From: an uncultured virus (IMG/VR IMGVR_UViG_3300021138_000020)
Taxonomy: Duplodnaviria; Heunggongvirae; Uroviricota; Caudoviricetes
Length of the DNA: 20,000 nucleotides
Virus record (IMG/VR): IMGVR_UViG_3300021138_000020
Strand: one strand, 5' to 3'
Shown piece after piece: positions 5,949 to 14,155 of this stretch (the first letter of the stretch is position 1; the number at the start of each line of letters is the position of its first letter). The notes beneath the pieces were generated by a model. That model was not told where the DNA came from. It did not search any database and saw only the letters and a program-made list of their open reading frames with translations. Both the position numbers and the translations under genes were made by a program.

Positions 5949-7136
5949 ATGTCACAACTATTAAACGAAAGATGGTCAGAGACCAAAGACGCTCTGCTTG
6001 AAGGCCTATCTGGTACACGTCGTTCTTCTATGCAAGTTTGCTTAGAAAACACACGTAAGTATTTGGCTGAAAGCGCAACTGCTGGTGCAACAAGTGCTGG
6101 TAACGTAGCAACACTAAACCGTGTTATTCTACCTGTTATCCGTCGTGTTATGCCTACAGTTATTGCCAACGAAATCATCGGTGTTCAACCAATGACTGGT
6201 CCAGTTGGTCAAATCCACACACTACGTGTTCGTTATGCTGATTCTAGCAACGAAGTAGTAGCTGGTGAAGAAGCATTAAGCCCATTCAAGATCGCTCAAG
6301 CCTATTCTGGTAACAACAACAGCACCACACCAGGCGCTGCTGCTACTAGCACACTTGAAGGTCAACCAGGTAACCGCATGAGCATTCAAATCTTGAAAGC
6401 CAGCGTTGAAGCCAAATCACGCAAACTAAGCGCACGTTGGACCTTCGAAGCTGCTCAAGATGCACAAGCTCAACAAGGTATCGATATCGAAGCTGAAATC
6501 ATGGCTGCTCTAGCTCAAGAAATCACAGCTGAAATCGATCAAGAAATCCTAGCTAGCCTACGTGGCTTGGCTACAGTTGAACAGACTTATGACCAATCGT
6601 TGGTTTCTGGTACAGCTACATTCGTTGGTGATGAACACGCCGCTTTGGCCATCATGATCAACCGTGCTGCTAACTTGATCGCTCAACGTACACGTCGTGG
6701 TGCTGCTAACTGGGCTGTTATTTCTAACCAAGCTCTTACAATTCTACAATCTGCTACTACCAGTGCTTTCGCTCGTACTACAGAAGGTACATTCGAAGCT
6801 CCTACAAACACCAAGTTTGTTGGTACATTGAATGGTTCTATGCGTGTTTATGTTGACGCTTATCTACAAGATAGCGGTTCACAAAGCATTCAAGACAACC
6901 AAGTATTGTTAGGCTACAAAGGCGCTTCAGAAGCTGACGCTGCTGCGTTCTATTGCCCTTACATTCCTCTAATGAGCTCTGGTGTTGTTCTAGATCCAGC
7001 TACTTTCGAACCAGTAGTTGGCTTCTTGACTCGCTATGGGTACGTAGAATTGAATAACACGGCCTCGAGCCTAGGAAATGCAGCTGACTACCTAGCTAAA
7101 GTTTCTATCAACTCTAGCACAGTTAGCTTCCAATAA
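5949..7136 (+). CDS. gp23: Major capsid protein, T4 gp23-like
   Basis: Motifs IRRVMPTVIANEIIGVQPMTGPVGQIHTLRVRY, VEAKSRKLSARWTFEAAQD, EITAEIDQEI, FYCPYIPL and DPATFEPVVGFLTRYG. It has an AAGGAG RBS and strongly biased codon usage. Confidence 0.97.
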   Translation: MSQLLNERWSETKDALLEGLSGTRRSSMQVCLENTRKYLAESATAGATSAGNVATLNRVILPVIRRVMPTVIANEIIGVQPMTGPVGQIHTLRVRYADSSNEVVAGEEALSPFKIAQAYSGNNNSTTPGAAATSTLEGQPGNRMSIQILKASVEAKSRKLSARWTFEAAQDAQAQQGIDIEAEIMAALAQEITAEIDQEILASLRGLATVEQTYDQSLVSGTATFVGDEHAALAIMINRAANLIAQRTRRGAANWAVISNQALTILQSATTSAFARTTEGTFEAPTNTKFVGTLNGSMRVYVDAYLQDSGSQSIQDNQVLLGYKGASEADAAAFYCPYIPLMSSGVVLDPATFEPVVGFLTRYGYVELNNTASSLGNAADYLAKVSINSSTVSFQ

Positions 7137-7156
7137 TCCATTTACCTGGATTTCTA

Positions 7157-7183
7157 AAAACCCGCTTCGGCGGGTTTTCTTTT
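7157..7183 (+). terminator. Intrinsic terminator after the major capsid gene
   Basis: AAAACCCGC-TTCG-GCGGGTTTT stem with a cUUCGg tetraloop, followed by CTTTT. Confidence 0.9.
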
Positions 7184-7210
7184 GACTGTTTGTTTTGTAT
7201 CTATTATAAT
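7182..7210 (+). promoter_or_regulatory. Sigma70-like promoter upstream of the endonuclease
   Basis: TTGACT (7182-7187), a 17-nt spacer, then TATAAT (7205-7210). Confidence 0.65.
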
Positions 7211-7231
7211 ATGTAATGCAGCAGACTATAC

Positions 7232-7237
7232 TAAATA
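7232..7237 (+). promoter_or_regulatory. TAAATA late-promoter-like motif
   Basis: CTAAATA lies 5 nt before ATG 7243. Confidence 0.6.
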
Positions 7238-7242
7238 ATAGT

Positions 7243-8037
7243 ATGAAACATTTCATATATAAAACATCCCATCCTAATGGAAAATACTATATTGGTAGAC
7301 ATAGTACTGATAATGAAAACGACGGATATATTGGTTCAGGACGCTGGCCGAGTTCTATAAAAGATAAATCCATTCTTACCAGAGAAATATTGGAATATTT
7401 TTCAGATCAACAGTCTTTAATAGAGGCTGAAGATAGGTATCTTGCAGAACATTTCGGAAAACTAAATTGTATGAATATGAGTAATAGAGGTACTGGTGCC
7501 CCCGTTGGCGATTCAAATCCTATGAAACGATCCGAAGTTAAGGAAAAGTTTAAAGGTGATAATCATTGGACTCATACACAACCAGAAAAACGTGAACAGA
7601 TCAGAGATCTACAAATAGAAAAATATAAAAAAGGTATTCATGTATGGTCTAAAGATCATCCAAATAAAGGCGGATCAGTATCGCGAAATACTGTTAAACA
7701 AGGAAGAAATATCTTTCAAACTAATAATCCTAGTATATGGCGCAGCGAACAAGGTATACACCATTGGCAAGATGGAAAAAGTCCAAACGCTGATGGAAAA
7801 TTAAATAAGAAATTAGTTGAAGAAGGTCGACATAACTTTCTAGGTGCTGAACTTAATAATAAACGTATTGCAGAAGGTACACATAATTTTGTAGGTAGTG
7901 AAAGCAATCTTAAAAGATTAGCCGAAGGACGACATCCAAGTCAACAAAAGAAAATATGTGAGCATTGCGGTAAAGAATCTAGTATAGGTATGTACGTAAG
8001 ATGGCATGGTGATAAATGTAAAGGAAAAACAAAATGA
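7243..8037 (+). CDS. Free-standing GIY-YIG (Seg-like) homing endonuclease
   Basis: N-terminal FIYK...YYIGRH...GYIGSG...EAE...N pattern of GIY-YIG nucleases, G-x-H-x-F/W repeats, and a C-terminal CEHC...H...C zinc-finger-like motif. It is more A-rich than its neighbours. The probable start is 7243 (MKHFIYKT), with an alternative in-frame ATG at 7216. Confidence 0.85.
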   Translation: MKHFIYKTSHPNGKYYIGRHSTDNENDGYIGSGRWPSSIKDKSILTREILEYFSDQQSLIEAEDRYLAEHFGKLNCMNMSNRGTGAPVGDSNPMKRSEVKEKFKGDNHWTHTQPEKREQIRDLQIEKYKKGIHVWSKDHPNKGGSVSRNTVKQGRNIFQTNNPSIWRSEQGIHHWQDGKSPNADGKLNKKLVEEGRHNFLGAELNNKRIAEGTHNFVGSESNLKRLAEGRHPSQQKKICEHCGKESSIGMYVRWHGDKCKGKTK

Positions 8038-8219
8038 ACTCAAGGCAATATGAAAAAATGATGAGAGATGTATTAAATGAAGCTTTGGAACAAGCAGGTA
8101 TTAGCATTGCAGATTGTAATGGTATTAGTTTAAGTGCAGATAGAACGGAATATGAACTTAACTTAAAAGACGGTTCGACTACAATAATACCTAGCGGATT
8201 GCCCTATCTTGAGGATTGA
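8034..8219 (+). CDS. Small hypothetical protein (61 aa)
   Basis: ATGA start/stop overlap with the endonuclease and AAGGA upstream. It fills the gap up to the next promoter motif. Confidence 0.6.
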   Translation: MNSRQYEKMMRDVLNEALEQAGISIADCNGISLSADRTEYELNLKDGSTTIIPSGLPYLED

Positions 8220-8220
8220 C

Positions 8221-8226
8221 TAAATA
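8221..8226 (+). promoter_or_regulatory. TAAATA late-promoter-like motif
   Basis: CTAAATA at the start of the intergenic region before 8313. Confidence 0.6.
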
Positions 8227-8228
8227 AC

Positions 8229-8288
8229 ACTGTTCGCTCTTAACGGAGAGTTTATGCAGAAATCCAACTGCGTAGATCATAGAACGGT
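8229..8288 (+). ncRNA. Candidate structured cis-regulatory RNA (three-way junction) in the 5' leader of 8313..9212
   Basis: P1 is ACUGUUC (8229-8235) with GAACGGU (8282-8288). P2 is CUCUU (8237-8241) with GAGAG (8246-8250). P3 is UUUAUGCAG (8251-8259) with CUGCGUAGA (8268-8276). Four of the pairs are G-U. Confidence 0.6.
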
Positions 8289-8312
8289 CTTAAACATTAA
8301 GGAGAAAACAAA

Positions 8313-9212
8313 ATGGGACGTCCTCTAAAAGCAAGATATTTCGTAAAAAGCGGTGCTAAAGACACTAGCTATGCAGTAAAATATGAAGGTGTTACAATTG
8401 CGGTATCAAACACAGGTTCGCACTATTCACAAGCTGCTACTATTGTAATTTCTGGTCCAGACGCATCTGGTGATAGTGTAAATGCCACAGCTTCTATTAC
8501 TATTGCTTCGCCTACTGCCAACGGCGGCATTACTGGTGCTACAATCACTAATCCAGGTGCTGGTTATTCTAGCAATCCTACAGTTAGTATTATTAAACCT
8601 GCTACTGTAAACTTTGCCGGAGCTACCTCTGGTGTCAATACAAGAAATACATTTACTGTATCAACAACTGCCGGACTTAGTGTAGGTATGTTGATTTCTG
8701 GTGCTGCAACTGGTATCAGCGGTTATATTACTGCTATCAACGGCAACATCATTTCTTCTACACAAAACAACAACGGTTCTTGGTCTAGTGCAACTAACCT
8801 AGTATTCAGCGATGCTGGTACTGGTGCAGTATTCGCAACTGGTCTAACACACTTAGAAACTGATGTTGGAACAATTGCTGCTACAGCTTATTTGTCAACA
8901 GGCAGCAGCGCAACGGCATCTGCTATCCTTAAACAACACGGTGCTCGTAGCTATCTAGTAGAAAGCGATCAAGGTCGCGGTGTTGTTAAATTAACTACTT
9001 CTACAGTCGTAGCTGGCACAATGCAAATTGTTGCCAAAGATGGCAATGGTAATAGCTATACAGTTCAAAAGCTAACAGGCAAAAAAGCCAGCCTATGGCG
9101 CAAAACACAAAACGGTGCTAACGCTTGGTTATTTGCCAATGACTCAGTTGCTGGTTGGGTTCTAGGATGGGCTAATGCTACCTCTACCAAAGTTGGTATT
9201 CAATCTAATTAA
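8313..9212 (+). CDS. Putative virion structural protein (possible head decoration or appendage)
   Basis: 299 aa, S/T/G/A-rich and beta-type, with TGSHY...ITNPGAGYSSNPTVSI motifs of the kind seen in T4-like virion proteins. It has an AAGGAG RBS and its own promoter motif and terminator. Confidence 0.65.
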   Translation: MGRPLKARYFVKSGAKDTSYAVKYEGVTIAVSNTGSHYSQAATIVISGPDASGDSVNATASITIASPTANGGITGATITNPGAGYSSNPTVSIIKPATVNFAGATSGVNTRNTFTVSTTAGLSVGMLISGAATGISGYITAINGNIISSTQNNNGSWSSATNLVFSDAGTGAVFATGLTHLETDVGTIAATAYLSTGSSATASAILKQHGARSYLVESDQGRGVVKLTTSTVVAGTMQIVAKDGNGNSYTVQKLTGKKASLWRKTQNGANAWLFANDSVAGWVLGWANATSTKVGIQSN

Positions 9213-9233
9213 TTAGATTTTACTGCTAATTAG

Positions 9234-9258
9234 AAAGGACTCTTCGGAGTCCTTTTTT
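9234..9258 (+). terminator. Intrinsic terminator
   Basis: AAAGGACTC-TTCG-GAGTCCTTT stem with a UUCG loop, ending in a run of six Ts. Confidence 0.9.
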
Positions 9259-9285: not shown

Positions 9286-9291
9286 TAAATA
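9286..9291 (+). promoter_or_regulatory. TAAATA late-promoter-like motif
   Basis: GTAAATA lies 4 nt before ATG 9296, directly downstream of a terminator. Confidence 0.6.
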
Positions 9292-9295
9292 TAGG

Positions 9296-9799
9296 ATGAC
9301 CACTCCTACCATTGTATCTCAATATGCAGAAGATTCGTCTCACATTGAGTGGAATAACAATATAACTGATTTAAAATATAGTGCAGGTGTTATAGGAGTT
9401 AGCACCGTTAAGCCTTTATTGCATATTAGTCGCCAACCAAGAAATGACATTACCATGCAGACTTGGTATATAAAGGCCACAGGATTTAATTTTACCAATC
9501 TCCCTCAACAAATTTCCGGCATCACTGTAACCATTGCCATGGAAAGACATGGTAGAGTCACAGATGATACTGTTCAATTGTGTTATCAGGATGAACCCAT
9601 TGGCGAGAATCTTGCATTTTTAACTTGGGATCCTACTACAGTTTATGGCGGAGTTACTAATACCTGGAAGGTTAAGAACCTATCTGCAGCAATGGTTCAA
9701 GATTCTAGCTTTGGTTTACTGTTAAGATATCAAAGCCATCCTCGTTGGCCGCACAGCACTGTTCCTATCATTAGGTCGATTGATATGCAGGTAAGCTGA
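9296..9799 (+). CDS. Hypothetical protein (beta-rich, possibly structural)
   Basis: The ORF-track start at 9257 is a TTG inside the terminator T-tract. ATG 9296 (MTTPTIVSQY) after TAAATA is more plausible, giving 167 aa. Confidence 0.65.
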   Translation: MTTPTIVSQYAEDSSHIEWNNNITDLKYSAGVIGVSTVKPLLHISRQPRNDITMQTWYIKATGFNFTNLPQQISGITVTIAMERHGRVTDDTVQLCYQDEPIGENLAFLTWDPTTVYGGVTNTWKVKNLSAAMVQDSSFGLLLRYQSHPRWPHSTVPIIRSIDMQVS

Positions 9800-9804
9800 A
9801 CCAA

Positions 9805-9810
9805 TAAATA
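9805..9810 (+). promoter_or_regulatory. TAAATA late-promoter-like motif for the fibre operon
   Basis: AATAAATA is followed by AAGGA and ATG 9830. Confidence 0.6.
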
Positions 9811-9829
9811 CTCTAAAGGAATGTAATAA

Positions 9830-12800
9830 ATGTCAGGAACACGGGTATCAGGCACAAGAATAATCCCCCCAAGTGCACAGAATGGACAAGGATCTAGCAA
9901 TCAGTCTATTCAGTCGCCTTACGGAAATATTCAACTAGTTACTAGTGCAACTGGTCATTTAGTAGTCAGTAATTCATTCACCACTGTAGGTACCACAGGT
10001 AATACAAATCCCAATGTTGGTAGTTCTTGCAGTCCACAGGGTCAAGACCCTATGGGTATTGATCAAGGAACTTACTACAGTACCACCGCTCAACGTCAAA
10101 TGGCGCAGGCCTATTTTGGCGGCGGAGTTGGTGTTGAAAAAGATCTAGCTGTAGGTGGATACATCTACGGACGTCTTGCTCGTGCTACCAACGGTGGTAT
10201 TAGTACTGCTACTGATTCTATATTTGTTTACTCTACAAGTAGCAATCAAGACTACTATATTTCATTCACTGATAGTTTAAACAGTGATGCTTATCTTTGG
10301 GGTAATGCTGCATTAACTTATAATGCAGCTACAGGCAGATTAACTGCATCGAAAGTTTTAATATCATCAACTACTGCTACGACTAGCACAGACAGTGGTG
10401 CACTAGTAGTAGATGGCGGTGTTGGCATAGGCGGAGATATTACTCTAGGCGGTGTATTGTATGCAGGGGAAACTTTTGCCGATGATTATCTAACCACAGT
10501 CTATGAAAACTTCTTAAAACTACCTGCTAGCTCGGGCAATGTAGCCATAGGTGCAGGCACAACTGATGTATTCGGTGACCTTCGTGTTCGTGGTAAGAAT
10601 CCAATTGGTACTGCACCGGTTGTAACTAATATCTTATACGTTACCATGGACGGTGATGATACCAACGATGGGCGTGCACAAGATCCTAGTCGTGCTTGCC
10701 GCACTATCAGTGGCGCTATTCGCAGTCCGTTCTATCAATCAGGTACACAGATTAAAGTTAGTCCTGGAAAATATCTAGAAAATAATCCTATTCTATTAAA
10801 GCCCTATACCAGTGTAGTAGGTAGCGACTTAAGAACAACCAGCATTGAGCCAATTAATAAGACACAGGATTTATTCCATTTAACATCTGGCTGCTATCTC
10901 AGCAACATGCAGTTCTTAAATGGCCGCAGTGGCCTACTACCGGGTCGCTATGACACTGGTTATAACCGTGGTGCGTATGCAACGGCATTTCCTATCAGCA
11001 TCAGTACTGATACCAGTACATTAATTGACATTTATCACAGTCCCTACATACAAAACTGTACCAACCTAACTGGACCTTGGTTAAAAGATGGTACATTGTT
11101 TGTACCTAATCAAACAGTTCAACTACCACTGGCCGTAGGAACAGGTACATGGATTGCAAATACCAGTAGCATTGTAATTACAACTTCTTCTGGTCAACTC
11201 ACAGTGGGCATGACCATTAACCAAGGACAGCAAAATCCCGGATTCTTTAATGCTCGTACATTGTTATTGGCCAATAAAAAGTTCCTACAAGAACAAATTA
11301 TTGCTTGGATCAGCACTACCTATCCTAGTTTTGTTTATAACACTGCCTACTGCTATAGAGATGTTGGCATTATTGTAGAAAATGTTGCCTATGATGCTGC
11401 CTTCGGTGGCAATGCAAATAGTGTTGCTTCCGGACTGGCCTACTGGCGCGGTACTACCAGTGTAATTCAAGGTGAAACTACACAAACTGTTGCAGCAATA
11501 AATCAACTGCTAACATGGTGTTTAGACATTATTGCAAATACATCTACAGGATTATCTGCAATAACCGCTGCACAGGTTATTAACACAGCATTAACTGGAG
11601 GCGGTGTTGCTACTAGCTCAATAACTGCTTTGTTTGGTATCATTACCAGCATCATTACCACAGGCCCTAGTGCTGCTCCTGATGTTTATAATGGCGCTGG
11701 GCCCGATGCTGCCTATGTTAGTGCAGAAGTTTTACTACAATCTAATCGTAGTTTTATTCAAGATCAGGTTGTTAGTTATATTAACAACAAGTATCCTACA
11801 TTTACCTACAACACCACTGCTTGTTTTAGAGATGTTGGATTAATTGTTGACGCCGTTAGTCAAGATATACTACTAGGTGGCAATCGACGTAGTGTTGAAG
11901 CAGGTCTAGCTTATTGGAACTACGGTGTTAATGCTGTGGCTACCGAAATAACAACTACTACTGACGCTATTTCTTACGCTAGAGATATTTCTTTAGAAAT
12001 TATTGGTAATGTCGAAGCTTCCTTAGCTCCCGGATCTACTAGTTCTCAGGTACTTAACACATTCTATCAGTACGGAAGTGCTTATATTCCTAGACAAGCA
12101 GTTGCTCGCAATTACGATATTATCACCTCTATTATAAACAACGGTCCTAGTGCCGCTCCTATAGTATATGAAGGTAGTAGTTTGTTTGCTGCCACAGGTG
12201 TTAATGCTGCTGATACTAGAGTTGCGACTACAGTTACTAGTGTTACTACACAAAGCTCGGGCGTTTACAGAATTGGCTTGAGCACTCCTACAATAGGTTC
12301 AGGAACAAATGCAACTTTGTATTTTGGCAATACCTATGGATGGCCTTTACAAGACAGCGATATGGATGCTCTTAGCTATTCTGTAACTGGAAATACCAGC
12401 ACATGGGCAAGCCGCAAGGTAGATCCAATTGGTGGTATGGGCGGAAGTCTAGTTGACGGTGCACAGGTTAGTGCCCGCAGTCCTGTACAATCTTTTGTTT
12501 ATGATGCATTTACACAATTATCACAAGGCGGCATCGGTGTTCGTGTTACTAACAATGGATATGCACAATTAGTTTCTGTGTTTACCATCTTCTGCGATAC
12601 TGCTGTACAGGTAGACAACGGTGGTATTGTTAGTATTACAAATAGTAATAGTAATTTTGGTAGATTAGCGCTGGTCGCTAACGGATATGGACCACGTAAG
12701 TTTAGTGGAACTGTTTATAATCCTGCTAATCGTGCATATCCTTTTAGTCCCGGATTGTTGGATCCGTATTATCCTAATGGCTTTTGGCCGTCGAAGGGTA

Positions 12801-14155
12801 GTCTAGTAGAAATTTTTACACCAGATTTAATCAATAGGCCACATATAAGTTTGATCATGGAGATTGTTCCTCCTACAACCTACATCAATAAAGCAGGATT
12901 ACCGGGATTTTTAAATGCACAACCTAGCACAAGTACATTTACTACGGGTACTGTTACTATTACCGGCCTAAGTACAAACGGTGTCTATGTAGGAAACAGC
13001 GTTTATATTACTGACGGTTTAGGTTCTCAAACAGACAGCAATGGCGTATTATATGCTGCAACTGGTACTACTGTAATCGATGTACAATATAATTCAATTA
13101 CATTAAATCAAGCGTTAACCAGCGGTGGGTCTTCTAATGACCCTACATATTTTACCATGTATGTAAGCGGTAATGCCTATTATACTGTACTGACCAGTGA
13201 AGTTGCAGCACAGCCGTATGCACCTGGTACTAATATCTTGGCAGCAAATACAGATCCTAACTTCCAAGGACCTTCAGTAAGCCAAATTGCTGCACATTTA
13301 GATGTACTGACCTACATGAACACACTAGTATCGGCTGTAGTTTCTAACACTACATTTACTACTAGTGCTGGAACAACCTCAACACAGGTTAAAGATACTA
13401 ATCGTACCCACGGTTCATCTGCAACAACTTTTATTAGCAACGAGTTTACTACAATAAAAAATATTGTAGGGGCAGCTAATTTAACAGCAGCACAAGCTGT
13501 AGTACCGCAAGCATCTATTACTACTAGTGGTCCTGATGTGCCCGGGGCTGGAGATGCAATTGTATTAATAGAAAAAAATATTAATTTTATAAGTGATGAA
13601 ATTTATCATTACATTTTAGATACTTCGGCAGATAACACAGCATTAAATGCCAGCACCAGTAGCTATCAGTATAATAAATGTGCTCGTGATGTTGCACTGA
13701 TTCTGCAACAGCTTATCTATGATTTACAGTCTGGCGGAAATTATAATGCTGTCTATTCGGGATTGAGCTATTGGAGTCGTCCTGGCACATATCATATTGT
13801 AGAATTAGAAGAATATGTAACAGACAACAACCTATTCCCCGATGGCGCAACAGTAAACTTCTATCAACGTAGTTACATTAGTGCCAGCGGATACTTGTTT
13901 GAATATGTCGGAGCAGGCAGCAACTACGGTGCACTACCTCAGAACGGTGTTGCTGATCCTATACAAGCACAAGAAACTGTTGCACTCAACGGCGGCAAAG
14001 TATTCTTTACATCAACAGACCAAAACGGTGACTTCCGCATTGGTCCTGAATTAGTTATCAGTCAAGCCAACGGTGTGATATCTGGTAGAGCATTTACACA
14101 ATCATTGTTTGCAAACATGACACCGTTTATTCTAGCCATCGAAGGCGGATCTTAA
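9830..14155 (+). CDS. Large virion structural or tailspike-like protein with a probable beta-helix (pectin-lyase-like) region
   Basis: 1441 aa. It has a beta-helix cap-like motif ILYVTMDGDDTNDG...CRTISGAI...IKVSPGKYLENNP and SPYIQNCT. There are three helical CxRDV...D...GGN...GLxYW repeats and a C-terminal VFFTSTDQNGDFRIG...GRAFTQSLFANMTPFILAIE. Confidence 0.75.
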   Translation: MSGTRVSGTRIIPPSAQNGQGSSNQSIQSPYGNIQLVTSATGHLVVSNSFTTVGTTGNTNPNVGSSCSPQGQDPMGIDQGTYYSTTAQRQMAQAYFGGGVGVEKDLAVGGYIYGRLARATNGGISTATDSIFVYSTSSNQDYYISFTDSLNSDAYLWGNAALTYNAATGRLTASKVLISSTTATTSTDSGALVVDGGVGIGGDITLGGVLYAGETFADDYLTTVYENFLKLPASSGNVAIGAGTTDVFGDLRVRGKNPIGTAPVVTNILYVTMDGDDTNDGRAQDPSRACRTISGAIRSPFYQSGTQIKVSPGKYLENNPILLKPYTSVVGSDLRTTSIEPINKTQDLFHLTSGCYLSNMQFLNGRSGLLPGRYDTGYNRGAYATAFPISISTDTSTLIDIYHSPYIQNCTNLTGPWLKDGTLFVPNQTVQLPLAVGTGTWIANTSSIVITTSSGQLTVGMTINQGQQNPGFFNARTLLLANKKFLQEQIIAWISTTYPSFVYNTAYCYRDVGIIVENVAYDAAFGGNANSVASGLAYWRGTTSVIQGETTQTVAAINQLLTWCLDIIANTSTGLSAITAAQVINTALTGGGVATSSITALFGIITSIITTGPSAAPDVYNGAGPDAAYVSAEVLLQSNRSFIQDQVVSYINNKYPTFTYNTTACFRDVGLIVDAVSQDILLGGNRRSVEAGLAYWNYGVNAVATEITTTTDAISYARDISLEIIGNVEASLAPGSTSSQVLNTFYQYGSAYIPRQAVARNYDIITSIINNGPSAAPIVYEGSSLFAATGVNAADTRVATTVTSVTTQSSGVYRIGLSTPTIGSGTNATLYFGNTYGWPLQDSDMDALSYSVTGNTSTWASRKVDPIGGMGGSLVDGAQVSARSPVQSFVYDAFTQLSQGGIGVRVTNNGYAQLVSVFTIFCDTAVQVDNGGIVSITNSNSNFGRLALVANGYGPRKFSGTVYNPANRAYPFSPGLLDPYYPNGFWPSKGSLVEIFTPDLINRPHISLIMEIVPPTTYINKAGLPGFLNAQPSTSTFTTGTVTITGLSTNGVYVGNSVYITDGLGSQTDSNGVLYAATGTTVIDVQYNSITLNQALTSGGSSNDPTYFTMYVSGNAYYTVLTSEVAAQPYAPGTNILAANTDPNFQGPSVSQIAAHLDVLTYMNTLVSAVVSNTTFTTSAGTTSTQVKDTNRTHGSSATTFISNEFTTIKNIVGAANLTAAQAVVPQASITTSGPDVPGAGDAIVLIEKNINFISDEIYHYILDTSADNTALNASTSSYQYNKCARDVALILQQLIYDLQSGGNYNAVYSGLSYWSRPGTYHIVELEEYVTDNNLFPDGATVNFYQRSYISASGYLFEYVGAGSNYGALPQNGVADPIQAQETVALNGGKVFFTSTDQNGDFRIGPELVISQANGVISGRAFTQSLFANMTPFILAIEGGS

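Follow-up and report, generated by a model that had tools for sequence, protein, structure and literature searches.

A freshwater-2 leader RNA on a late message of a giant T4-like freshwater phage and the possible pairing of its loop with the start codon

The + strand segment 8235-8315 of a 20,000-nucleotide stretch of phage DNA (the window) is a freshwater-2 RNA (RF02980), a membership that leaves hardly any room for doubt. The source is an uncultured giant T4-like freshwater phage. The element is already catalogued (Rfam, type Cis-reg), so the window copy is not an element of a new kind; the comparison adds context and a testable mechanism to an orphan RNA family catalogued with unknown function. 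Freshwater-2 is placed at the head of late messages in uncultured giant T4-like freshwater phages, where it accompanies a single family of unnamed proteins that are probably virion-associated. As far as can be seen, the putative late promoter, the one-gene unit by the capsid gene, the MGRP protein family and the proposed pairing of a loop with the start codon go beyond the Rfam entry. Taken as a whole, a freshwater-2 late leader with a start-codon pseudoknot is the explanation that we favor and consider reasonably likely. The features that this explanation draws on are as follows.

7157-7178, + strand: terminator-like hairpin of 9 pairs with a T run, downstream of the major capsid gene (5949-7136)
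7216-8219, + strand: cassette inserted between capsid gene and leader, outside the RNA
8221-8226, + strand: TAAATA, core of a putative T4-type late promoter, predicted +1 at about G8232
8232-8235, + strand: GUUC at the predicted 5' end, complementary to GAAC 8282-8285, core of the earlier P1
8235-8250, + strand: hairpin 1 (earlier P2), Rfam register C8235-U8240 with G8245-G8250
8253-8274, + strand: hairpin 2 (earlier P3), stem U8253-G8259 with C8268-A8274, loop AAAUCCAA 8260-8267
8263-8266, + strand: putative pseudoknot 5' strand UCCA in the hairpin 2 loop, proposed partner UGGG 8314-8317
8275-8289, + strand: hairpin 3, GAUC 8275-8278 with GGUC 8286-8289, loop AUAGAAC 8279-8285
8299-8304, + strand: Shine-Dalgarno sequence AAGGAG, within the conserved 3' region of the Rfam model
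8313-9212, + strand: led gene (ORF, AUG at 8313) for a 299-aa protein starting MGRPLK, no named family
8314-8317, + strand: putative pseudoknot 3' strand UGGG, last two start-codon bases and first two bases of codon 2
9232-9257, + strand: terminator-like hairpin closing the one-gene unit

Membership in the freshwater-2 family and conserved structure

The original prediction had presented the leader as a candidate for an undescribed system and was prepared to give up its novelty for a clear match to a described Rfam family. An Rfam scan returned freshwater-2 with 61.0 bits, above the curated gathering score of 49.9, for 8235-8315 (+). The match spans model positions 1-84 of 84 and is not truncated (E 2.4e-7 over the window), and the same match was recovered from the whole virus record. 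Alignment to the Rfam consensus verified that UUAUGC...GCGUAG, UAGAAC and AAGGAGAAAAcAAAUG are present, with one non-standard pair, which lies in hairpin 1. The leader contains the three consecutive hairpins of the model, its UUAUGC.G / C.GCGUAG stem and, in the third hairpin, the UAGAAC loop that is written in upper case in the Rfam consensus. The Shine-Dalgarno sequence and the AUG lie inside the model, and the leader is found directly upstream of a protein-coding gene. The invariant UUAUGC/GCGUAG and UAGAAC, the Shine-Dalgarno-to-AUG tail and a freshwater metagenomic origin are common to the family and the window leader, and no feature sets the latter apart. These data support a structured, strand-specific, cis-acting leader of a phage late gene, as had been proposed. 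A free or virion-associated small RNA, also suggested earlier, is unlikely, since conservation extends across the Shine-Dalgarno sequence and the AUG and the ORF is not preceded by a terminator. The family is presumably a product of the comparative screen of 224 motifs by Weinberg et al. 2017. The main text of PMC5737381 makes no mention of 'freshwater', and literature searches by family name and Rfam accession returned nothing on freshwater-2 RNA.

Judged from the aligned leaders, the family consensus is three separate hairpins with no closing P1, and comparison of 150 of these sequences shows hairpins 2 and 3. Hairpin 2 is paired in 98.7% of cells, its inner pair occurring as GC (73), AU (50) and UA (26), while hairpin 3 is paired in 96.2% and carries both-side changes in three of its four pairs. 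At 94.0% pairing, the whole family structure stands above its shuffles (80.1%; none of 500 as high) and above slid partners (22-44%). The invariant stem sequences keep G.U, one pair being UG in 140 leaders and CG in 9. Hairpin 1 is optional in the family and is missing in leaders such as L004, L012, L022 and L023; in the window it can also adopt an alternative register, CUCUU 8237-8241 with GAGAG 8246-8250. The linker 3' of the hairpins is A/U-rich and variable in sequence and length, and is accompanied by an invariant strong Shine-Dalgarno sequence. A subset of relatives carries an extension, CAU.GG.CUUCU, between hairpin 3 and the Shine-Dalgarno sequence; pairing with the latter and acting as a loop decoy were considered as possible roles, and the window leader is without this extension.

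The search patterns used to collect relatives demanded GCGTAG and TAGAAC, and the sample of leaders is biased in this respect. In the first pattern scan, all 117 unique leaders preceded an ORF starting MG.. or MA.., and a scan for leaders with a fourth base other than G yielded three loci, none of them a family member. The motif always has one orientation between promoter and ORF, and five genome records of 186-374 kb each contain a single copy. No match was obtained among cultured phages by blastn of 3 kb around the element or by tblastn of the 299-aa protein, and blastn of two leaders against the same phages returned ribosome-binding-site-like pieces only. Vibrio phage 2.275.O and Sinorhizobium phage Phosso, which are among the closest capsid relatives, gave no freshwater-2 match over the cut-off. 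Prokaryote genomes contained 11 pattern matches, six of which were real leaders, but as all lie on metagenome-bin contigs they do not provide a reliable host. Owing to its strong sequence conservation, the motif is a handy metagenome marker for this group of giant T4-like freshwater phages.

Putative late promoter, led gene and genomic neighborhood

The T4 late promoter element is TATAAATA. The promoter-like sequence of the leader, cTAAATAa, agrees with it at 6 of 8 positions, and TAAATA is found within 70 nt upstream of hairpin 2 in 163 of 169 related leaders. Within the window, TAAATA occurs 11 times on the + strand and not at all on the - strand, against 25.9 expected. Applying the T4 rule to this sequence, transcription would start near G8232, in line with the +1 of about 8232 predicted earlier. 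The statement that other leaders in the window are short was found to be true for the late-promoter-like sites examined: the gap between TAAATA and ATG is 5, 4, 19 and 42 nt at 2701, 9286, 9805 and 3096, compared to 86 nt for the leader.

The leader lies downstream of portal, protease and capsid genes, and the capsid protein is approximately 70% identical to giant myovirus capsid proteins. The hairpin at 7157-7178 marks the end of this upstream unit, and the next TAAATA after the one-gene unit is that at 9286. The inserted cassette carries a homing-endonuclease-like gene (7216-8037; phrog_314, E 2.5e-21) and, as its second gene, a 61-aa ORF (8034-8219). In a related contig, 713 other letters replace 7186-8219 and the likeness resumes at 8220. 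A second or orphaned copy of the leader near the endonuclease gene was searched for in 7100-8260 and none was detected (E up to 10).

The led 299-aa protein gave nothing in a Pfam search and weak repeat-type matches only in PHROGs. Among 19 related downstream proteins, 16 are without a PHROG and three have weak matches, and all 34 homologs are unnamed. Foldseek against the PDB returned no match at E <= 0.001, and the best VIA-align result (Z 8.6) covers residues 97-168 only. The protein contains small beta-barrel domains of the kind seen as decorations on phage tail and capsid proteins; in fold comparisons it matched virion decoration-type barrels and, weakly, Tudor/KOW-like folds. It is probably part of the virion.

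Co-variation of the hairpin 2 loop with the second codon

Comparison of 169 leaders shows that the hairpin 2 loop co-varies with the second codon, CCC loops accompanying AUGGG and GCC loops accompanying AUGGC. The exchange is tolerated by the protein, as the natural Gly2 and Ala2 variants show. Among the 113 AUGGG leaders, a loop 4-mer pairs with UGGG only in 90, with UGGC only in none and with neither in 23, many of the latter having CCA (3 bp) or a shifted register. The 56 AUGGC leaders are less uniform (UGGC only in 34, UGGG only in 10, both in 2, neither in 10), and 22 of them are without a matching GCC-type loop. Two further divergent AUGGC leaders, L272 and L278, were filtered out, and their loops (CGACCA and CACCA) also mismatch. 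The association between loop and start type has a Fisher value of 3e-23, which is not corrected for kinship. In alignment A1, the pair formed by columns 16 and 83 is CG in 101 leaders, GC in 13, UG in 1 and another combination in 31; pairing is seen in 83.9% of cells versus 8-55% for slid partners, and 13 double-change cells were counted versus 3.3 +/- 1.5 in shuffles (0/500). The co-variation concerns one pair position, and no co-variation between the base before CCC and the third base of codon 2 was apparent by eye among the listed leaders.

The start type changed 12 times on a protein tree. When all branches were used, 10-12 independent pairs could be compared, in which the loop followed the start type in 5-7, went the opposite way in none and showed no difference in 3-6. 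Well-supported branches alone provide three independent pairs (2-3 the same way, none opposite), a number that cannot reach significance. The clearest pair contrasts L204 (MARPLKIAKAQAV, loop UAAGCCA, AUGGCA) with L020 and L034 (MGRPLKIAKAQAV, loop UAACCCA, AUGGGA).

This co-variation supports a pseudoknot between loop and start codon, and with it translational control. The hallmark of start-codon-masking leaders, a pairing of loop and initiation region that is kept by compensatory change, is observed at one pair, with significance at the sequence level. Such a pseudoknot is probably real, and in the window it would be weak, with four base pairs including a G.U at one end and a duplex estimate of -3.1 kcal/mol compared to -5.5 for the common UACCCA loop.

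The element would be read as a 5' leader of about 81 nt that heads the one-gene late message of a giant T4-like freshwater phage. The message would start near G8232, just past the late-promoter-like TAAATA, and its RNA would form the three hairpins (8235-8250, 8253-8274 and 8275-8289), followed by an A-rich linker bearing the strong Shine-Dalgarno sequence and the AUG of the MGRP protein. Pairing of UCCA 8263-8266 with UGGG 8314-8317 would then hide the start codon, so that the most likely role of the leader is to set or gate the initiation of translation. That the pseudoknot acts on translation appears slightly better than an even proposition. A response of the leader to a factor falls somewhat short of that; free copies of the MGRP protein are a first guess for the trigger, modeled on phage structural and nucleic-acid-binding proteins that regulate themselves, and the alternative is that the leader is a fixed tuner. 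A true sensor, in which a factor reading the UUAUGC/GCGUAG stem and the UAGAAC loop opens or locks the pseudoknot, is rather unlikely. The factor could be an unassembled virion protein, giving assembly-coupled feedback, or a small molecule, and GUUC would serve as a switching strand that pairs with GAAC in place of hairpin 3. If the pseudoknot holds, freshwater-2 would join a small number of structured elements known to control translation of a phage structural gene; if the sensor reading is true, it would define a new class of translational switch for such genes.

A constitutive leader that senses nothing is the strongest rival to a freshwater-2 leader with a start-codon pseudoknot, although we regard it as unlikely. 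Its 5' hairpins would shield the message from 5'-end-dependent decay and leave the Shine-Dalgarno sequence open in the A-rich linker, so that an abundant virion protein is made at a fixed, tuned and high level. Stabilizing 5' hairpins are established in bacteria, the ompA leader being an example. Hairpin 1 begins 3 nt from the predicted 5' end, but this hairpin closest to the 5' end is the dispensable one. The variable A/U-rich linker with its strong invariant Shine-Dalgarno sequence and the one-gene late unit adjoining the capsid gene fit high constant expression, whereas a mere stabilizer needs neither invariant stems with conserved G.U nor an invariant UAGAAC loop. The co-variation between loop and start codon points to an interaction at the initiation site, with which a fixed attenuator is also consistent.

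Two groups of known elements provide points of comparison for the start-codon pseudoknot. The SAM-II/SAM-V and preQ1-II translational riboswitches hide the ribosome-binding site in a pseudoknot. They are likewise small leaders in which a hairpin loop pairs with the downstream initiation region; however, the window leader matches none of these Rfam families, its start codon rather than its Shine-Dalgarno sequence would be paired, and its gene is structural rather than metabolic. Self-regulated phage messages include the T4 gene 32 leader with its pseudoknot, the MS2 coat-protein operator hairpin at the replicase start and the feedback by the P22 scaffolding protein. In these, too, RNA structure is found at the initiation site of a phage gene or close to it, and freshwater-2 always travels with one protein family, which is the usual look of protein-responsive leaders, but they have no sequence or family relation to freshwater-2. 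By analogy with these systems, the MGRP protein might conceivably bind the leader.

The three-way junction and the GUUC segment

The original prediction described a three-way junction composed of P1 (A8229-C8235 with G8282-U8288, 7 bp with one G.U), P2 (C8237-U8241 with G8246-G8250, loop AACG), P3 (U8251-G8259 with C8268-A8276, loop as in hairpin 2) and a 3' junction UCAUA at 8277-8281. All listed pairings are present in the sequence, including the four G.U pairs of this fold, TAAATA and AAGGAG lie where they had been placed, and nearly the whole leader folds. The junction is the minimum-energy fold of 8221-8315 in ViennaRNA at -20.8 kcal/mol, versus -11.6 +/- 2.6 kcal/mol for shuffles (z -3.55; 0 of 200 as stable as the real leader), and no such stability is seen for the opposite strand (z -0.56; 54 of 200 as stable). 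P2 and P3 correspond to hairpins 1 and 2 of the family. The junction itself is retained as the minimum-energy fold of the window sequence, whereas the family consensus has three separate hairpins; likewise, the pairs of P1 exist but are not part of the family structure, as its 3' half, GGU 8286-8288, belongs to the 3' strand of the co-varying hairpin 3. With a start near G8232, the outer P1 pairs at 8229-8231 would fall outside the RNA and only GUUC:GAAC would be left of P1. For RNA from +1 the two alternatives tie, at -14.4 for the junction and -14.3 for the three hairpins of the family, and the single-sequence ensemble of the window assigns GUUC:GAAC a probability of 0.57 versus 0.16 for hairpin 3.

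The junction is central to the improbable reading that the leader is an aptamer closed by GUUC 8232-8235 and GAAC 8282-8285 that senses a small molecule, e.g. glutamine, and switches translation. Besides its place as the minimum-energy fold, RNAalifold predicts the junction for the 33 GUUC-type leaders too; in these, the four GUUC:GAAC pairs never vary, so that covariation neither confirms nor refutes them. Covariation among the homologous leaders was found for hairpins 2 and 3 and not for the core of P1. GTTC stands at a fixed place, 4-6 nt past TAAATA, in 60 of 163 leaders and is missing at the other 10 TAAATA sites of the window, but it is not so placed in 103 of 163. Of the 163 5' segments, 102 contain words complementary to CUAGAAC, compared to 36-45 for control word sets, and the leaders' own 5' end fits the hairpin 3 region slightly better than swapped ends (-4.0 vs -3.72 +/- 0.09; 2 of 2000 permutations as low). 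Nevertheless, just 20 of the 163 minimum-energy folds show GAAC paired to the 5' segment. By geometric reasoning, the closing stem and hairpin 3 are mutually exclusive, because no spacer separates GAAC from the 3' strand of hairpin 3, and it is hairpin 3 that co-varies.

The likeness to glutamine riboswitches, proposed on account of GUUC...GAAC, did not hold up. The glnA RNA and the Downstream-peptide motif (RF01739 and RF01704) share with the leader a similar small size, an occurrence in aquatic metagenomes and phages and, in the earlier fold, a P1-like GUUC...GAAC, but the freshwater-2 consensus is without a closing P1. Neither these nor any other riboswitch family matched at E up to 10, and cmscan of 8100-8450 yielded only freshwater-2 and a chance snoRNA match. 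The led gene is of structural and not of metabolic type, which also argues against the aptamer.

Conservation at the DNA level, with the motif being a homing-endonuclease target or a recombination site by the variable cassette and the RNA fold incidental, would accord with the endonuclease-like gene directly upstream and the swapped cassette between the capsid terminator and 8220, but is very improbable: it is largely refuted by the compensatory changes that preserve pairs of hairpins 2 and 3, both the G.U pairs and the stability of the fold are confined to the + strand, the motif is found in a single orientation with the promoter on one side and the ORF on the other, and the variable cassette stops before the promoter and not within the motif.

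A catalogued RNA family and its fold

When the whole window was compared with Rfam 15, only RF02980 (freshwater-2, type Cis-reg) scored above its curated threshold, with one match on the + strand at 8235-8315. This match scored 61 bits (gathering score 49.9 bits) and covered model positions 1-84 of 84. The leader is a real, strand-specific and conserved RNA of an already catalogued family without assigned function. The original prediction had proposed an undescribed system and had itself named a clear match to a described Rfam family as removing that novelty, which is what was found. Its likeness to glutamine riboswitches gained no support, since neither these nor any other riboswitch family matched around the leader in Rfam at E values up to 10. 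The freshwater-2 motif reportedly originates from a published comparative motif study. Searches by motif name and accession retrieved no literature beyond the Rfam entry, and the main text of PMC5737381, the presumed source, does not mention the motif. Alignment to the RF02980 model places the following elements:

8235-8250, + strand, hairpin 1
8253-8274, + strand, hairpin 2 with the conserved UUAUGC.G / C.GCGUAG stem
8275-8289, + strand, hairpin 3 with loop AUAGAAC
+ strand, conserved tail AAGGAGAAAAcAAAUG

The original prediction had described 8221-8315 as a three-way junction. All of its listed base pairings are present, and exactly this junction is the minimum-energy structure in ViennaRNA (-20.8 kcal/mol, z -3.55, 0 of 200 shuffles equally stable), while the opposite strand folds ordinarily (z -0.56). 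The description was accurate, but the junction model is unsupported: the family structure consists of three hairpins. The predicted P2 and P3 correspond to hairpins 1 and 2, whereas the sequence assigned to the 3' side of P1 forms the loop and 3' strand of hairpin 3, which keeps its pairs by changes on both sides.

Relatives were gathered from IMG/VR by sequence pattern, and their numbers are lower bounds; one pattern search was complete and gave 76 loci. At least 169 distinct leaders were parsed among the matches listed and 15 rows were set aside, of which 13 look like chance matches and two (L272 and L278) like divergent members. Of the 159 distinct cores among the matches listed, 150 were aligned and their pairs counted. 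In these 150 leaders 98.7% of hairpin-2 cells are paired; the variable pair of this hairpin is GC in 73, AU in 50 and UA in 26, and one conserved G.U stem pair is UG in 140 and CG in 9. For hairpin 3 the figure is 96.2%, with both-side changes in three of its four pairs. Across the whole three-hairpin structure pairing amounts to 94.0%, compared with 80.1% in shuffles (0 of 500 as high) and 22-44% for slid partners. Hairpin 1, an optional element, is missing from several of the leaders listed.

The outer three pairs of the predicted P1 are window-specific and would fall upstream of the predicted transcript start. Its core, GUUC:GAAC, recurs more widely: among the matches listed, GTTC follows TAAATA by 4-6 nt in 60 of 163 leaders, and it is found at none of the other ten TAAATA sites of the window. 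RNAalifold predicted the junction for 33 of the 40 listed leaders with GUUC at the predicted 5' end (seven long, extension-type leaders were omitted), and folding of the window's leader from the predicted start gave equal energies for the junction (-14.4) and the three hairpins (-14.3). In the leaders listed, 5' ends fit the hairpin-3 region of their own leader slightly better than swapped ones do (-4.0 versus -3.72 +/- 0.09; 2 of 2000 permutations as low, kinship ignored), which is a weak hint toward the pairing. Because all four core pairs are invariant across these 33 leaders and the geometry, as we read it, makes the stem and hairpin 3 mutually exclusive, the GUUC:GAAC junction is retained only as a candidate alternative conformer. 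In seven leaders (L088, L209, L215, L262, L286, L311 and L319) hairpin 1 itself reads GUUC-NNNN-GAAC, giving the 5' GUUC a local GAAC partner besides that in loop 3.

Co-variation of the hairpin-2 loop with the second codon

Among the leaders listed, the hairpin-2 loop nearly always contains CCC(A/G) and the reading frame nearly always starts with AUGGG; leaders starting with AUGGC (Ala at position 2) mostly have GCC(A/G) in the loop. With Watson-Crick and G.U pairs allowed, the loop 4-mer of the 113 AUGGG leaders listed could pair with UGGG only in 90, UGGC only in 0 and neither in 23. For the 56 AUGGC leaders listed the numbers are UGGC only 34, UGGG only 10, both 2 and neither 10. Loop type and start type are associated across the 169 leaders listed (Fisher 3e-23, kinship ignored). 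In A1, the alignment of such leaders, 83.9% of cells at the four proposed pairs are paired, compared with 8-55% for slid partners. The key pair is CG in 101, GC in 13, UG in 1 and other in 31, and its 13 double-change cells compare with 3.3 +/- 1.5 in shuffles (0 of 500 reach 13).

Kinship was checked on a tree of proteins encoded downstream of the leaders listed (165 proteins, residues 3-92), on which the start type switches 12 times. Well-supported branches provide only three independent pairs, too few for significance, with two to three changing the same way and none opposite. Over all branches, and with our own choice of pairs, the loop follows the start in 5-7 of 10-12 pairs, never opposes it and shows no difference in 3-6; a 6-to-0 split corresponds to p 0.03, from a weakly supported tree. 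The clearest contrast is between L204 (MARPLKIAKAQAV, loop UAAGCCA, AUGGCA) and its neighbours L020 and L034 (MGRPLKIAKAQAV, loop UAACCCA, AUGGGA).

Against a pairing of loop and start codon stand the 22 of 56 AUGGC leaders listed without a matching loop, to which L272 and L278 would add two, and the proposed helix of only 4 bp. In the window it would join UCCA (8263-8266) to UGGG (8314-8317) with a terminal G.U pair, at an estimated -3.1 kcal/mol compared with -5.5 for the common loop.

Transcription unit, led protein and phage genome

The leader heads a predicted one-gene unit, judging from the order of these features:

7157-7178, + strand, terminator after the capsid gene
7182-7210, sigma-70-like promoter (TTGACT-17-TATAAT, 11/12)
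7216-8037, + strand, homing-endonuclease-like gene (phrog_314), then a 61-aa ORF
8221, + strand, TAAATA, then the leader
8313-9212, + strand, 299-aa gene
9232-9257, + strand, terminator

TAAATA occurs at 11 sites in the window, all on the + strand, compared with 25.9 +/- 5.0 expected, and is avoided except where a promoter role is possible. TAAATA precedes hairpin 2 by at most 70 nt in 163 of the 169 relatives among the matches listed, a distribution that fits a T4-type late promoter. By the spacing rule of T4 late promoters, transcription would start near 8232. Other TAAATA sites lie 4-5 nt (2701-2714 and 9286-9298) or 19 nt (9805-9832) upstream of an ATG, so several late genes would have almost no or very short leaders; ATG 9296 is the probable start of the ORF listed from TTG 9257. 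Both 6971-7185 and 8220-8964 are matched by a contig of another freshwater sample, which has 713 letters of its own where the window has 7186-8219. The slot at 7182-8219, which separates the capsid terminator from the leader's promoter, therefore contains a variable endonuclease cassette, and similarity returns exactly at this late promoter.

All leaders among the matches listed precede proteins of 116-468 aa starting with MGRP or MA.., many with a motif like GYIVKQKGSKKF. The 299-aa protein has no Pfam match and its 34 homologues are all without a name; of 19 related downstream proteins compared with PHROG, 16 gave no match and three weak repeat-type matches. Its AlphaFold model is all-beta (pLDDT 84.6). 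Residues 97-168 resemble small barrels decorating phage tail-tube, sheath and capsid proteins (best match 9n71_B, with Z 8.6 and rmsd 2.3 across 71 residues). For the C-terminal part there are only weak Tudor/KOW-like matches, and the closest predicted viral structures are uncharacterised proteins. Gene position and modelled fold make it likely that the protein is virion-associated.

The window belongs to a 69.6-kb virus record that is 19% complete by CheckV, so the full genome should measure about 360 kb. Upstream of the leader are a T4-type portal, a prohead protease, a scaffold-like protein and a gp23-type major capsid protein, the last about 70% identical to those of the giant myoviruses Vibrio phage 2.275.O, Sinorhizobium phage Phosso, GAP32, CBB and PA5oct. 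No freshwater-2 match above the cut-off was found in the genomes of 2.275.O and Phosso. Five records of 186-374 kb have a single copy each, and some smaller contigs among the matches listed have two, each before paralogous genes. Six true freshwater-2 leaders (L330-L332 and L335-L337) are on contigs of metagenome bins assigned to Rhizobium, Crocinitomicaceae, Vampirovibrionales, Legionellales, Rickettsiales and Haliscomenobacter; as these are probably phage contigs swept into the bins, they are not taken as host evidence. The 1441-aa tail-fibre-like protein (9830-14155) has a borderline Pfam Phycobilisome match (E 1.1e-4, 22.6 bits, cut-off 22.2), which a helical repeat probably produced by chance.

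Possible regulation by the leader

Family membership, hairpins 2 and 3 and the co-variation of loop and codon are established for this leader and its relatives. The proposed loop-2 pseudoknot would hide the start codon and thereby limit or gate initiation on a message that bears a very strong Shine-Dalgarno sequence. That the stem, with its conserved G.U pairs, and the UAGAAC loop are invariant suggests that a partner recognises them. T4 gp32, MS2 coat protein and P22 scaffolding protein are known for such feedback, and by analogy our first guess is that unassembled copies of the encoded protein could act back on the leader. It is nearly as likely that the leader serves as a fixed tuner and stabiliser; with a structural gene downstream and no riboswitch family matched, a small-molecule switch is less likely. 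Pairing of loop 2 with the start codon would provide a testable mechanism for the orphan family freshwater-2.

A subset of leaders (L005, L016, L017, L024, L026, L038, L187, L283, L304 and others), to which the window does not belong, has an extra conserved stretch CAU(C/U/A/G)GG(A/G)CU(U/C/A)CU between hairpin 3 and the Shine-Dalgarno sequence. Its CUUCU/CUCCU portion could pair with AGGAG as an anti-Shine-Dalgarno, and its UGGG(A/C) portion is similar to the start region and a potential competitor for pairing with the hairpin-2 loop.
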